Shown piece by piece: positions 2,400 through 21,456 of a stretch of 64,000 nt of DNA. The notes under the pieces were generated by a model, which saw only the letters and a list, made by a program, of their open reading frames with translations, was not told the DNA's origin and did no database searches. Source of the stretch: Lingula anatina. Taxonomy: Eukaryota; Animalia; Brachiopoda. How positions within the stretch are numbered: position 1 is the first letter of the stretch; the number at the start of each line of letters is the position of its first letter. Made by a program: the position numbers and the translations under genes. The stretch is from NCBI GenBank assembly GCA_051362555.1, contig CM120644.1:25600213-25664212 (forward strand), written 5' to 3'.

Positions 2400-2589
2400 A
2401 TGAGATCCACATTCTTTGTCCTGTTGCTGATGGCAATGATAGGACTACTTGGACAGTTTACGGAGGGTAGACGTGGTCCTTTGGCTGCCATATTTGATAA
2501 GAAGATTCCTCCCATGAACAACACTGGGGTGGATCCTGGGCAACCTCTCTTCCTGACCCCCCTCATAGAGAAAGGCCAGATAGCACAAG
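2400..2589 (+). CDS. CPVL: CPVL-like coding exon 1 (signal peptide, propeptide)
   Basis: tttttttcttcag|ATG; encodes [23 protein letters not shown]...[15 protein letters not shown]; donor AAG|gtaggt. The acceptor directly before the ATG implies an upstream UTR exon. Confidence 0.88.
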
Positions 2590-5500
2590 GTAGGTATAGG
2601 ACAAACTCTCTTCTGACATCTCTTATAGAGAAAGGACAGATAGCACAAGGTAGGTATAGGACAAACTCTCTTCCTGACCCCCCTCATAGAGAAAGGCCAG
2701 ATAGCACAATGTAGGTATAGGACAAACTCTCTTCCTGACATCTCTCATAGAGAAAGGACAGATAGCACAAGGTAGGTATAGGACAAACTCTCTTCCTGAC
2801 ATCTCTTATAGAGAAAGGACAGATAGCACAAGGTAGGTATAGGACAAACTCTCTTCCTGACATCTCTCATAGAGAAAGAACAGATAGCACAAGGTAGGTA
2901 TAGGACAAACTCTCTTCTGACATCTCTCATAGAGAAAGGACAGATAGCACAAGGTAGGTATAGGACAAACTCTCTTCCTGACATCTCTCATAGAGAAAGG
3001 CCAGATAGCACAAGGTAGGTATAGGACAAACTCTCTTCTGACATCTCTCATAAAGAAAGGACAGATAGCACAAGGTAGGTATAGGACAAACTCTCTTCCT
3101 GACATCTCTCATAGAGAAAGGACAGATAGCACAAGGTAGGTATAGGACAAACTCTCTTCCTGACATCTGTCACAGAGAAAGGACAGATAGCACAAGGTAG
3201 ATATAGGACAAACTCTCTTCTGACATCTCTCATAGAGAAAGGACAGATAGCACAAGGTAGGTATAGGACAAACTCTCTTCCTGACATCTGTCATAGAGAA
3301 AGGACAGCACAAGGTAGGTATAGGACAAACTCTCTTCTGACATCTCTCATAAAGAAAGGACAGATAGCACAAGGTAGGTATAGGACAAACTCTCTTCCTG
3401 ACATCTCTCATAGAGAAAGGACAGATAGCACAAGGTAGGTATAGGACAAACTCTCTTCCTGACATCTCTCATAGAGAAAGGACAGATAGCACAAGGTAGG
3501 TATAGGACAAACTCTCTTCCTGACATCTCTCATAGAGAAAGGACAGATAGCACAAGGTAGGTATAGGACAAACTCTCTTCCTGACATCTCTCATAGAGAA
3601 AGGACAGATAGCACAAGGTAGGTATAGGACAAACTCTCTTCCTGACATCTCTCATAGAGAAAGGACAGATAGCACAAGGTAGCCTGGTTTGTGCAGATAT
3701 GAACTTATTTTGAACATATAACTTTCAGCTGTCAAATTAGTATGTTTCATTTGTCATTTTCTTGTCTTTAGCACGTGCAGCCAGTGCAGTGGGTCCATTA
3801 GAAGGAACTTCAGTGATGAGTTTTTCTGGATTTCTTACTGTTAACAAGACTTACAACAGCAATATGTTCTTCTGGTTCTTCCCAGCTCAGGTGTGTTATC
3901 TACCAAATGTCATACCTAACACACTGTCACACCTAACACACTGTCACACCCAACACACTGTCACACCTAATACACTATCACACCTAACACACTGTCACAC
4001 CTAACACACTCACATCCAACACACTGTCACACCTAATACACTATCACACCTAACACACTGTCACACCTAACACACTGTCACACCTAACACACTCACATCC
4101 AACACACTGTCACATCCGACACACTGTCACATGTAATACACTGTCACACCTAACACATTGTAACATCTAACACACCGTCACATCTAACACACCGTCATAC
4201 CTAACACACTGTCACACCTAACACACTGTCACACCTAACACACTCACATCCAACACACTGTCACATCCGACACACTGTCACATGTAATACACTGTCACAC
4301 CCAACACGCTTTCACAACTTTCACACTGTCACATCTAACACACTGTCACACCCAACACGCTGTCACAACTTTCACACTGTCACATGTAATACACTGTCAC
4401 ACCCAACACGCTTTCACAACTTTCACACTGTCACATCTAACACACAGTCACACCCAACACGCAGTCACATCCAACACACTGTCACACCCAACACCCTGTC
4501 ACAACTTTCACACTGTCACATCTAACACACTGTCACATCCAACACACTGTCACATCTAACACACTGTCACATCCAACACACTGTCACATGTAATACACTG
4601 TCACATCTAACACATTGTCACACCCAACACACTGTCACATCCAACACACTGTCACATCTAACACACTGTCACATCCAACACACTGTCACATGTAACACAC
4701 TGTCACATCCAACACATTGTCACACCCAACACACTGTCACACCCAACACACTGTCACAACAAACACACTGTCTTATCCAACACACTGTCACACCCAACAC
4801 ACTGTCACATCCAACACACTGTCACATCCAACACACTGTCACAACAAACACACTGTCACAGCTAACACGCTGTCACATCTAACACTGTCAAAGCAACCAA
4901 TACACCGTCACAACATCCATATGTCACTGCTATCATACTTCTACACCAACTTAATGTTACACAAATTTTATGTCACACACACACATCTAGCAGTTTAACC
5001 TCAGAGCCATTAAATGGCGCGTATATGGGGGGGGGGGTTAACCAGCAGATTAGTTGGCTCTTCCTTCATGTAGGGTCCACCATATTTGATCTGTGGATCA
5101 ATAGGTCCTTGGATCTTGTTTTCTGAATGGCCTCTTAGAATTCACATAACTGCCTCATTTGTACATCTATCACACTGTCACTTACAAGATTTGGCAAAGC
5201 TGTTTTTTTTTATATTCCAGAATGATGCCAGTAATGCACCAGTGTTGCTATGGTTACAAGGTGGCCCAGGAGGGACATCTTTGTTTGGGTTGTTTAATGA
5301 ACATGGCCCGTTTTATTTGACAGCTGATCTCAAATGTGAGTACTGAACATCGTTGAAAATTATTTTATACACATAGAAAATAATTACCACTAAAGGTGCA
5401 TTTTAAAGCTTTCCAAGCCAGGATGTTCTTGACAAAAATAAATTTTCTTAGGTAAATGCTGCTTGTCCAGACTAACCAACCTCTAATCATCCTTTACTTA

Positions 5501-20500: not shown

Positions 20501-21456
20501 GATGTGATAATTGCAGCAGTGATGACAGAGTCTTTCCTAAGTACTGTACCTTGGCAGTATCAAGATGAGTATCTGCGTGCTGACCGCTGGATCTGGAAGG
20601 TGAACAAAGCAGACTCTGAGGTGGCTGGATATGTAAGAAGAGTACATGACTTTTATCAGGTAGGGAGTGGAGCCAAGAGATCTTTCTTTTCTCAAGCACC
20701 CTCCTTAATTTTACCTCAGTTGATTCAGAATACCTCTGTCTCAGTAATAAACCTAAAATTATCATTTTCACTGCATTGTGCTATAATAAGTTGACTTGTA
20801 AATAAGATATGTTGTATCTAAAACCTAACATGGTAGATAACCTTGTTCTCACATAGAAATTCAGCATACAAGGTGGTGGTCATATTCTACCCTATGATCA
20901 GCTTTATAATGGACATGTTGTCATATAGAATATAAAGATATAATTTGATATATTCTAGGTTATAGTACGAGGTGGTGGTCATATTCTACCCTATGATCAG
21001 CTATATAATGGAAATGTTGTCATATAGAATATAAAGATATAATTTGATATATTCTAGGTTATAGTACGAGGTGGTGGTCATATTCTACCCTATGATCAGC
21101 TATATAATGGAAATGTTGTCATATAGAATATAAAGATATAATTTGATATATTCTAGGTTATAGTACGAGGTGGTGGTCATATTCTACCCTATGATCAGCT
21201 ATATAATGGACATGTTGTCATATAGAATATAAAGATATAATTTGATATATTCTAGGTTATAGTACGAGGTGGTGGTCATATTCTACCCTATGATCAGCTA
21301 TATAATGGAAATGTTGTCATATAGAATATAAAGATATAATTTGATATATTCTAGGTTATAGTACGAGGTGGTGGTCATATTCTACCCTATGATCAGCCAG
21401 CTAGAAGTTTAGACATGATGGACAGGTTCATCAACAACAAACCATTCAACAAGTAA
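2400..21456 (+). CDS. CPVL: Serine carboxypeptidase, peptidase family S10, CPVL (vitellogenic carboxypeptidase-like); 12 coding exons, about 480 aa
   Basis: Exons 2400-2589, 3772-3890, 5221-5335, 6276-6334, 15366-15445, 15570-15636, 15914-16036, 16146-16277, 16481-16579, 17532-17705, 20477-20659 and 21355-21456 are all GT-AG and phase-compatible, totalling 1443 nt. Motifs: signal peptide, [51 protein letters not shown], catalytic GE|SYAG, GQLDVII (Asp) and GGGHILP (His). Confidence 0.95.
2546..3682 (+). repeat. 60/61-bp tandem array (about 19 copies) reiterating the exon-1 3' end plus splice donor
   Basis: Unit is CTCTCTTCCTGACATCTCTCATAGAGAAAGGACAGATAGCACAAG|GTAGGTATAGGACAAA; the first copy lies inside the exon. 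Confidence 0.95.
3772..3890 (+). CDS. CPVL: CPVL-like exon 2
   Basis: ctttag|CACGT...GCTCAG|gtgtgt; encodes [40 protein letters not shown]. Confidence 0.92.
3908..4890. repeat. Degenerate 17-bp AC-rich minisatellite in intron 2
   Basis: ACACACTGTCACACCTA / ACACACTGTCACATCCA is reiterated. Confidence 0.9.
5221..5335 (+). CDS. CPVL: CPVL-like exon 3
   Basis: ttccag|AATGAT...AAAT|gtgagt; encodes [38 protein letters not shown]. Confidence 0.95.
6276..6334 (+). CDS. CPVL: CPVL-like exon 4
   Basis: ttgtag|TGAAT...AACCCA|gtaagt; encodes [20 protein letters not shown]. Confidence 0.93.
6378..15370 (+). repeat. 69-bp tandem array (roughly 115-120 copies) filling intron 4 and reiterating the exon-5 splice acceptor
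   Basis: Unit is GATATGTTGTGTTCTAG|GTGGGATGTTAAAGAGATAGGTAGATAATCAACTAGTCTTGATATTTCT; the last TTCTAG|GTGGG (15365/15366) is the real acceptor. Confidence 0.95.
10215..10423. mobile_element. MITE-like foldback element with about 59-bp perfect inverted termini; identical copies at 11130-11338, 12705-12913 and 13620-13828
   Basis: TTCAAATTACTGTTTTTCTTTTTATCAAGAGCTTGTAAAATATGTGGGTATTACCTCCAAT and its exact reverse complement flank a spacer of about 90 bp. Confidence 0.8.
15366..15445 (+). CDS. CPVL: CPVL-like exon 5
   Basis: Encodes [26 protein letters not shown]; donor ACAG|gtaagt. Confidence 0.95.
15570..15636 (+). CDS. CPVL: CPVL-like exon 6
   Basis: tttcag|TGCA...GGAGAG|gtgagt; encodes [23 protein letters not shown]. 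Confidence 0.95.
15914..16036 (+). CDS. CPVL: CPVL-like exon 7 (catalytic Ser)
   Basis: Encodes [15 protein letters not shown]...[13 protein letters not shown]; donor gtatgt. Confidence 0.95.
16146..16277 (+). CDS. CPVL: CPVL-like exon 8
   Basis: ttccag|ATGCTG...TTTAAT|gtattg; encodes [17 protein letters not shown]...QQWIKAFN. Confidence 0.9.
16481..16579 (+). CDS. CPVL: CPVL-like exon 9
   Basis: ttccag|GTGTTT; encodes [33 protein letters not shown]; donor gtatgt (first of six possible donors). Confidence 0.88.
16508..16986 (+). repeat. 81-bp tandem array (6 copies) of the exon-9 3' end plus donor
   Basis: 72 nt of exon plus GTATGTTAC is repeated in frame (27 aa); the last copy ends AGG|GTTTGA. 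Confidence 0.95.
17217..17414. mobile_element. MITE-like element in intron 9
   Basis: TTCCCATAAACCCAATGTACTAGCTGGATTG and CAATCCAGCTAGTACATTGGGTTTATGGGAA form inverted termini. Confidence 0.75.
17532..17705 (+). CDS. CPVL: CPVL-like exon 10
   Basis: ttctag|GAGCCG; encodes [28 protein letters not shown]...[18 protein letters not shown]; donor AAG|gtggaa. Confidence 0.92.
17953..20548 (+). repeat. 100-bp tandem array (26 copies) of the exon-11 acceptor plus the first 72 nt of exon 11
   Basis: TTCTTGTGA(C/T)ATTGTAG|GTATTGATCTACAGTGGTCAG recurs every 100 bp from 17976 to 20476; only the last copy continues into PWQYQDE. Confidence 0.97.
20477..20659 (+). CDS. CPVL: CPVL-like exon 11 (catalytic Asp)
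   Basis: Encodes [28 protein letters not shown]...[14 protein letters not shown]; donor gtaggg. Confidence 0.93.
20871..21397 (+). repeat. 99-bp tandem array (5 acceptors plus a partial copy) of the exon-12 acceptor and exon start
   Basis: TATTCTAG|GTTATAGTACGAGGTGGTGGTCAT occurs with the acceptor G at 20958, 21057, 21156, 21255 and 21354. Confidence 0.95.
21355..21456 (+). CDS. CPVL: CPVL-like exon 12 (catalytic His, stop)
   Basis: Encodes [39 protein letters not shown] occurs near 21543 and 21915. Confidence 0.93.
   Translation, partial: VIVRGGGHILPYDQPARSLDMMDRFINNKPFNK

Follow-up and report, generated by a model that had tools for sequence, protein, structure and literature searches.

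Five exon-intron borders of a single expressed gene in the brachiopod Lingula anatina are crossed by tandem arrays of unrelated units, and at the four borders covered by RNA reads the mRNA joins the array copy that adjoins the complete exon. These arrays are probably young, variable minisatellites, products of ordinary local tandem duplication where the genome is prone to repeats, that have been kept because splicing uses that copy. The gene lies in a stretch of 64,000 nucleotides, referred to here as the window.

The gene, a CPVL-like serine carboxypeptidase (Peptidase_S10) gene on the + strand (2400..21456), has 12 coding exons: exons 1-4 at 2400-2589, 3772-3890, 5221-5335, and 6276-6334; exons 5-8 at 15366-15445, 15570-15636, 15914-16036, and 16146-16277; and exons 9-12 at 16481-16579, 17532-17705, 20477-20659, and 21355-21456. 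The 3' UTR follows at 21457..21840 (+), with RNA read ends stacking near 21837 (X15, 5 molecules). All 11 introns are GT-AG, and the model translates to 480 aa with zero internal stops, of which 479/480 are identical to P0001, a protein that NCBI names Lingula anatina CPVL. In a profile search PF00450 matches P0001 (E 2.8e-99), and S211, D395, and H455 of the predicted enzyme sit within family motifs; from this profile match and the Ser-Asp-His motifs the product is predicted to be a carboxypeptidase of the Peptidase S10/CPVL type, and the lesion-free 480-aa frame with catalytic triad described in the initial annotation stands. An exon encoding 3 additional residues of P0001 was not found in the upstream sequence searched (1-2399). 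Introns 4-11 are spliced in RNA reads; the gene is expressed. Its GC content is 36.8% overall and 44.6% in exons, and it lies 34-53 kb from a telomere.

Arrays cross coding exons 1 and 9 at their donors and exons 5, 11, and 12 at their acceptors; all five junctions are on the + strand and as first named. The 60/61-bp donor array (2541..3682, x18.9) consists of 19 copies of about 49 bases from the end of exon 1 plus 12 intron bases, exon 1 itself being copy number one. In intron 4 the acceptor array (6376..15370) has a unit of 66 bp, rather than the 69 bp given initially, made up of 50 bases from the end of intron 4, only 5 exon bases, and 11 more; it holds 121 acceptor copies, the final one continuing into exon 5, and is broken by four identical 242-bp spacers into a higher-order repeat, a part of the assembly that is in doubt. 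The 81-bp donor array (16506..16986, x5.9; 6 copies) joins 74 exon 9 bases to 7 intron bases, and use of any later donor would lengthen the protein by 27 codons per copy, the frame staying open. The 100-bp acceptor array (17949..20548, x26) has 26 copies of 28 intron and 72 exon 11 bases, with exon 11 as the last copy. The 99-bp acceptor array at the last exon (20867..21397, x5.4) combines 56 intron and 43 exon 12 bases, carries 5 acceptors, and is preceded by an older decayed exon 12 fragment. All of these copy numbers are counts in the assembly. In array order the spare splice sites number 18 + 120 + 5 + 25 + 4 = 172, bearing out the expectation of more than 100 near-identical decoys; the AG or GT dinucleotide is intact in 172/172, and 4 acceptors are not YAG. 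The consistent polarity of the arrays, noted earlier, carries no weight as evidence, as any tandem duplication across a border yields the same geometry.

Introns 1, 2, 4, 9, 10, and 11 carry arrays with unrelated units. A 17-bp array (3908..4885) is wholly intronic, beginning 17 bases past the exon 2 donor, and counts as non-junction in the null model described below. This array and those of 35, 48, and 118 bp in or beside the gene are not counted as junction-crossing and were absent from the earlier count. The likely 5' UTR donor of a neighboring potassium-channel-like gene is a candidate for a sixth junction array. In the first 21.4 kb, 78% of the sequence is tandem repeat, against 5% in the 34 kb closest to the telomere; a repeat gradient rising toward the telomere is therefore rejected within the window.

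Splice-site use was read from raw RNA runs of the same species, which cover the borders of exons 5, 9, 11, and 12. Exon 4 is joined to 15366, the start of exon 5, in the loose ends of 13 X15 reads. At exon 9, depth falls beyond the first donor from 30.3 to 0.56 in X12 and from 36.6 to 4.42 in X15, where a few reads continue past; the joints listed include none at the four inner donors. A joint at 16983, the last exon 9 donor, appears in 5 X12 and 15 X15 reads that are indistinguishable from first-donor reads; use of this donor (5 + 15 + 2 reads) was not accepted, because every copy has the same 74 exon bases and the binned depth beyond them corresponds to only some 60 bases per read. Minor use of this and other later exon 9 donors may nonetheless occur. 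At exon 11, 29 loose-end X15 reads run from exon 10 into a 100-bp unit and on into the unique remainder of the exon, and zero sense reads fall at the two places sampled in the intron part of the array (18056 and 18069). At exon 12, 32/32 listed joints from exon 11 are at 21355 (7 in X12, 25 in X15), and RNA depth is 0 across 21027-21321 in both runs. Reads per joint are few (13-40). The mRNA thus joins the exon-adjacent copy at exons 5, 9, 11, and 12, although the copy numbers of the animals that supplied the RNA may differ from those of the window. Mapping RNA to the junctions, the check proposed initially, hence supports at four of five borders the alternative then raised, that the duplications are tolerated since the extra copies are spliced out. 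At exon 1 the normal product is known via P0001 alone, which reads through the first donor. Run X18 was set aside as evidence on decoy choice because its exon reads, about 5% divergent, have alleles in common with X10 (including 17997/20497 and 17998/20498), whose contigs are without the 100-bp array.

Contigs of other samples contain the 66-, 81-, 100-, and 99-bp arrays at widely different depths, contig depth being a rough guide and not a copy number. The 66-bp array is present as a contig in DNA run X3, and X12 RNA reads also cross its unit joints. In X3 the contig of the 81-bp unit has a depth of 1677 against about 90 for single-copy sequence (about 19x). The 100-bp unit, with 26 copies in the window, stands at roughly 22x single-copy depth in X3 and 1.3x in X2, the latter value suggesting that the 100-bp array is all but missing in some animals; the 99-bp unit reaches 7-11x in X2. 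In X10 one 1083-nt contig runs from the upstream flank to exon 11 with just one acceptor, and at exon 12 the decayed piece is present with other letters upstream of the acceptor. The arrays are real, young, and variable, because depths differ among other samples and a lineage about 5% diverged is without the 100- and 99-bp arrays. Creation of a new intron by the arrays (the Rogers model) is ruled out at intron 10, since the array-free X10 sequence has that intron's acceptor in the same position.

The initial annotation held that chance should not place five arrays on junctions of one gene. This was evaluated with a null model of random tandem duplication and loss of exonic events, with arrays collapsed, which leaves introns of 101-940 bp; in such short introns 29-46% of surviving duplications of 61-100 bp cross a junction by chance. 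Within the coding span 5/6 arrays cross a junction against 2.05 expected (P(>=5) = 0.015), and for all 9 arrays of the first 21.4 kb 2.74 are expected (P(>=5) = 0.096), both values before any correction for choosing this gene as the most striking one. With P of 0.015 to 0.10 chance may account for the placement, and the junction-centered amplification process raised initially is neither needed nor shown. Some junction bias in placement may nevertheless exist, because five of six arrays compare with 2.05 expected and two further arrays stop about 20 bases or less from a junction.

A birth process that seeds arrays at exon borders above chance, for example where the repair of DNA breaks linked to transcription or splicing leaves small tandem duplications and filler bases, and with splicing tolerance then retaining the products, is the best-surviving rival, and an unlikely one. 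It draws on the coding-span excess, on the concentration of repeats in the gene-bearing 21.4 kb (78% against 5%), on the candidate at the potassium-channel-like neighbor, and on the 61-, 66-, and 81-bp arrays, in each of which one array end is 2-5 bases off the junction and filler bases occupy the unit joint. In three arrays the joints hold 5-11 bases absent from both array ends, which plain duplication does not explain. The excess weakens, however, to P = 0.096 once three upstream arrays are included, the gene was selected after the fact, and wholly intronic arrays occur in the same gene.

Each array unit repeats neighboring sequence head to tail, in a stretch that is 78% tandem repeat. Under the preferred reading, ordinary local duplication, events of 60-100 bp in a gene with short introns would often cross a border; wholly exonic ones would be purged, and border-crossing ones would leave one complete exon. 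At exons 5, 9, 11, and 12 the exon-adjacent site is used in mRNA and the spare copies exit with the intron. By analogy with mammalian work, scanning would take the first donor after an acceptor, and exon definition would select whichever acceptor is closest to the following donor or poly(A) site. Slips at exons 5 and 11, and at most copies of exon 1, would be hidden by nonsense decay, but those at exon 9, where the frame is open, and at exon 12, the last exon, would not. To judge from contig depth, unequal exchange or slippage may then grow and shrink the arrays, leaving animals with different copy numbers. No function of the arrays is indicated.

A broader proposal, that the Lingula arrays are an AT-rich invertebrate counterpart of avian stuttering in which junction-preferential birth is combined with retention of acceptor arrays by an AG/GT recursive-splicing ratchet, is quite improbable. 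The ratchet as an account of persistence, in which use of a spare acceptor would recreate a donor that is then spliced to the last acceptor to restore normal mRNA, is more doubtful still. All three acceptor arrays lie at GT-starting exons, against 4/12 exons overall (P 0.018, after the fact); exon 10 followed by a 100-bp copy gives AAG/GTATTG, whose six intron bases are those of the gene's intron 8 donor; and UBC is reported to contain a tandem array with AGGT sites of dual use (PMC10809524). There are only three cases, however, and at exons 5 and 12 the donors that would be recreated seem weak; no intermediates running from exon 10/11 to an inner copy and into the intron part of the unit are listed in steady-state RNA at low depth, and the human CBS duplication is handled by plain distal-site choice in the available text (PMC2630376). 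Assembly artefact is a very improbable explanation for the arrays or for much of their length: the identical 242-bp spacers of intron 4 resemble a mis-joined repeat, two 2490-bp blocks differ at 2 of their first 1700 bases, and window copy numbers are unlike those of other runs, but unit-to-unit joints and high-depth contigs for the 66-, 81-, 100-, and 99-bp arrays recur in X3 and X2, from other studies and years, and X12 RNA reads span 66-bp joints.

The gene offers a compact natural test of splice-site choice, with 172 spare sites in one expressed gene. At exons 9 and 12 wrong choices should stay visible despite nonsense decay, yet the exon-adjacent site is read; with one acceptor present in 1, about 22, or 26 copies according to allele, a dose test would be possible.

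The Lingula arrays reveal no new kind of element. They are likely a dense new example of the known mirage or exon stuttering class, and the novelty implied initially gives way to patterns already in print for lancelets and chickens; among the matches listed, in a literature that takes in few subscription papers, none describes junction arrays in brachiopods. What is new is the brachiopod host, the AT-rich DNA, and the five borders within one gene. The comparisons that follow are with the available portions of the cited papers. Mirage minisatellites of amphioxus, in the globins BflGb6 and BflGb9, Adh3, troponin C, and PGBD5 (PMC3087553, PMC3902484), are likewise tandem copies of exon-intron borders on the donor or acceptor side, with units of 10-160 bp, AG/GT intact in many copies, normal mRNA, and haplotypes that differ in copy number. 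The host there is a lancelet rather than a brachiopod with five borders in one gene, and the globin mirages have 2-6 units, in contrast to a Lingula array of 121 copies, 9 kb, and a higher-order repeat. Border-spanning units, retained AG/GT, normal mRNA, and length variation between samples are all found in Lingula. The Adh3 mirage of amphioxus is reportedly somatically unstable.

In humans, the 37-bp VNTR of F7 intron 7 also has a first unit that spans the donor and silent identical donors downstream, the most upstream being chosen by scanning (PMC1557585); it involves one border and few copies and was tested in constructs, whereas the Lingula arrays are known from sequence and reads alone. 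CBS 844ins68 duplicates an intron/exon junction, uses the distal site, and yields normal mRNA (PMC2630376), but it is a single extra copy, unlike the expanding Lingula arrays. Variable exon-intron border repeats are also spliced out in genes of human segmental duplications, where they create new introns or splice forms in young paralogs (PMC2812944); in Lingula the exon structure has not changed, and the exon 11 acceptor is the same in X10, where the array is missing. Avian sequence (exon) stuttering (Hron et al., 10.1101/2025.09.16.676548) is similar in that its arrays are strictly local, their units are unrelated from one intron to another, some of them copy the edge of the adjacent exon, and length varies strongly within the species; more than 90% of its sources lie within 1 base of a border, with 1-44 copies and spans to 23.5 kb. 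It is linked to dot microchromosomes rich in GC and to a proposed G4 stress, in contrast to an invertebrate gene of 36.8% GC that lies 34-53 kb from a telomere. The Lingula arrays therefore work like avian stuttering but, because of this GC content and their brachiopod host, are not the avian case; they extend the mirage/stuttering class to brachiopods and AT-rich DNA, an argument against any requirement for GC richness.

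The 12 coding exons of the CPVL-like serine carboxypeptidase gene (window 2400-21456, plus strand) encode 480 residues with no internal stops, all 11 introns are bounded by GT-AG, and the family motifs contain S211, D395 and H455; the intact frame and catalytic triad described in the initial annotation are thus borne out. The L. anatina protein record used for comparison, P0001 (NCBI title 'probable serine carboxypeptidase CPVL [Lingula anatina]'; Pfam assignment Peptidase_S10), is identical to the whole model at 479 of 480 positions and longer by three N-terminal residues; exon 11 alone as query retrieves it at 100% identity. 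The sole mismatch is an allele present in four of ten reads at 16173 in the RNA run X12.

Tandem Repeats Finder, run on the window, lists the five arrays that had been placed on junctions of this one gene. They cross the exon 1 donor (61 bp x18.9, 2541-3682; 18 spare sites, i.e., extra splice sites in copies not adjoining the complete exon), the exon 5 acceptor (66 bp, previously given as 69 bp, 6376-15370; 120), the exon 9 donor (81 bp x5.9, 16506-16986; 5), the exon 11 acceptor (100 bp x26, 17949-20548; 25), and the exon 12 acceptor (99 bp x5.4, 20867-21397; 4). GT or AG is kept in all 172 spare sites, a count consistent with the more than 100 decoys expected earlier. The shared polarity, previously offered as evidence, carries no such weight; orientation is forced by duplication geometry, because only the first donor copy follows, and only the last acceptor copy precedes, a whole exon. 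The 66-bp array of intron 4 is interrupted by four non-repeat spacers of 242 bp, all identical (10182-13828); the resulting higher-order repeats of 915 and 2490 bp reflect very recent change or mis-assembly. For each donor array, the first donor, which is the one used, is nearer consensus than the last copy: GTAGGT (2590-2601) versus GTAGCC (3679-3690) at exon 1, and GTATGT (16580-16586) versus GTTTGA (16985-16991) at exon 9. Judged from these letters, the duplication joint may have created the working donor, or the last copy may have been trimmed back.

Three RNA runs of the same species label (X12, X15, and X18), sampled at 6-25% of each run's reads, were aligned to 15330-18200, and two of them also to 20260-22000; X18, being ~5% divergent, was set aside as splice evidence. 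Introns 5 to 11 are visible as GT-AG joints. For intron 4, exon 4 letters overhang before 15366 in 13 X15 reads, and in the 100-bp array 29 X15 reads link the 72 repeated bases to the unique remainder of exon 11; no sense read covers either of two places, 18056 and 18069, within that unit's intron part. The last-exon border is most telling, because a spare exon 12 acceptor would give a predicted 469-residue product that retains the catalytic His and stops inside the last exon, where junction-dependent decay should not hide it. Here 32 of 32 listed joints (7 X12, 25 X15) use the last acceptor and RNA depth across 21027-21321 is zero; ~70 bases of X15 depth on the first copy lie below the listed-joint level and fit one or two ambiguous reads. 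At exon 9, each later donor copy would insert 27 codons in an open frame; depth beyond the first donor falls from 30.3 to 0.56 (X12) and from 36.6 to 4.42 (X15). Joints in X12 and X15 number 15 and 25 at the first donor and 5 and 15 at the last, with none listed at the four inner donors. The reads at the last donor are probably misplaced, since 74 exon bases are identical in every copy; a minor share may reflect true use of later donors. At exon 1, the P0001 protein continues through the first donor. The gene is real, expressed, and correctly spliced at the borders tested; the exon-adjacent copy is used at exons 5, 9, 11, and 12, as seen in few reads from animals with untyped arrays, although X12 contains reads spanning 66-bp unit joints and reads on the intron part of the 100-bp unit.

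The arrays are probably best explained by ordinary local tandem duplication, which would start them, followed by selective loss of exonic duplications, tolerance of border-crossing ones through scanning and exon definition, and later gain and loss of copies. Four borders demonstrate that the exon-adjacent copy is used; array birth, selection, and the rule of site recognition are inferred. Introns measure 101-940 bp after array collapse. When each unit is placed randomly and wholly exonic placements are discarded, the six arrays of the coding span give 2.05 expected crossings (P(>=5) = 0.015), and nine arrays, with three upstream of exon 1 added as non-crossing, give 2.74 (P = 0.096); this null supposes survival of every crossing event and the gene was chosen as striking, two biases acting in opposite directions. 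Junction-biased array birth is an unlikely alternative, although the 61-, 66-, and 81-bp arrays each have one end within 2-5 bases of the junction, and their unit joints contain 5-11 bases that are absent from both array ends. Less likely still is ratchet rescue at acceptor arrays; all three adjoin GT-starting exons, as are 4 of 12 exons (P = 0.018, post hoc), but no splicing intermediate is listed. Tandem-repeat cover is 78% across 1-21456 and 5% across the 34 kb on the telomere side, which places the hot spot in the gene-bearing part rather than at the chromosome tip; the window terminates in 8.5 kb of telomere repeat.

That the arrays are an artefact is very improbable. Contigs from other DNA runs were compared for the 66-, 81-, 100-, and 99-bp arrays, with depth ratios as a rough copy measure: in X3, single-copy contigs have depth 88-92, the 81-bp unit 1677 (~19x) and the 100-bp unit 1902 (~22x), and a 66-bp unit contig is also found; in X2, single-copy depth is 6-7 and the 99-bp unit reaches 53-80. 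The 100-bp unit in X2 has a depth of just 8.7 (unit-to-unit joint 2.6), a level that suggests roughly one or two copies. In X10, whose exons are ~5% diverged, one 1083-nt contig links the pre-array flank with a single exon 11 acceptor; upstream of the exon 12 acceptor the letters differ, and the decayed exon 12 piece that begins the 99-bp array is present. Together these samples indicate that the arrays are real, young, and variable, and that the 99-bp array expanded from an older partial duplication. X10 and X18 share alleles and the ~5% exon difference (compared on 15330-22000) under the same species label, which suggests a distinct lineage or cryptic species.

Elsewhere in the window, a 127-bp x3 array (37400-37776, minus strand) with donor-like GTAAGT in every unit sits between a TATA-like stretch (~37915) and an acceptor at 37328, shortly before ATG 37243; the gene starting there (BTB_2/T1 domain) is probably a potassium channel, and the array probably spans a sixth junction, at a putative 5' UTR donor. 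A candidate divergent gene start (560-800, minus strand) has an ATG near 772 and a donor-like site 26 bases on; a 35-bp array (1-563) may lie within this gene, and 118-bp and 48-bp arrays separate it from CPVL, the latter stopping 21 bases short of the exon 1 acceptor. In intron 9 (17150-17250), 13 opposite-strand X12 reads lie on a 40-base piece and overhang it at either end with unmatched letters; the source is probably a dispersed repeat that is transcribed at another locus. By eye, 43470-50870 resembles an LTR retrotransposon that has long open frames and whose two ends (~43470-43970 and 50460-50880) are almost identical, and a short GGTTAG run (51677-51701, within 51627-51790) has a flank that recurs inverted at 55400-55460, immediately before the terminal telomere repeat.

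The CPVL arrays belong to an already known class, and no new system is shown; a literature search of limited coverage found no report of junction arrays in brachiopods. Ebner et al. describe tandemly duplicated donor and acceptor borders, termed 'mirages', in amphioxus globins and Adh3, with normal splicing and unstable length (PMC3087553); troponin C and PGBD5 are further examples (PMC3902484). In chicken, Hron et al. count 115 genes with exon-edge copies, in 236 introns (190 on dot chromosomes), and tie them to GC richness (10.1101/2025.09.16.676548). Border repeats in human genes are treated in PMC2812944; the first donor is chosen in the F7 repeat (Borensztajn et al., PMC1557585) and the distal site in CBS 844ins68 (PMC2630376). 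CPVL combines an unusual array density with a clean test of splice choice at its last exon.
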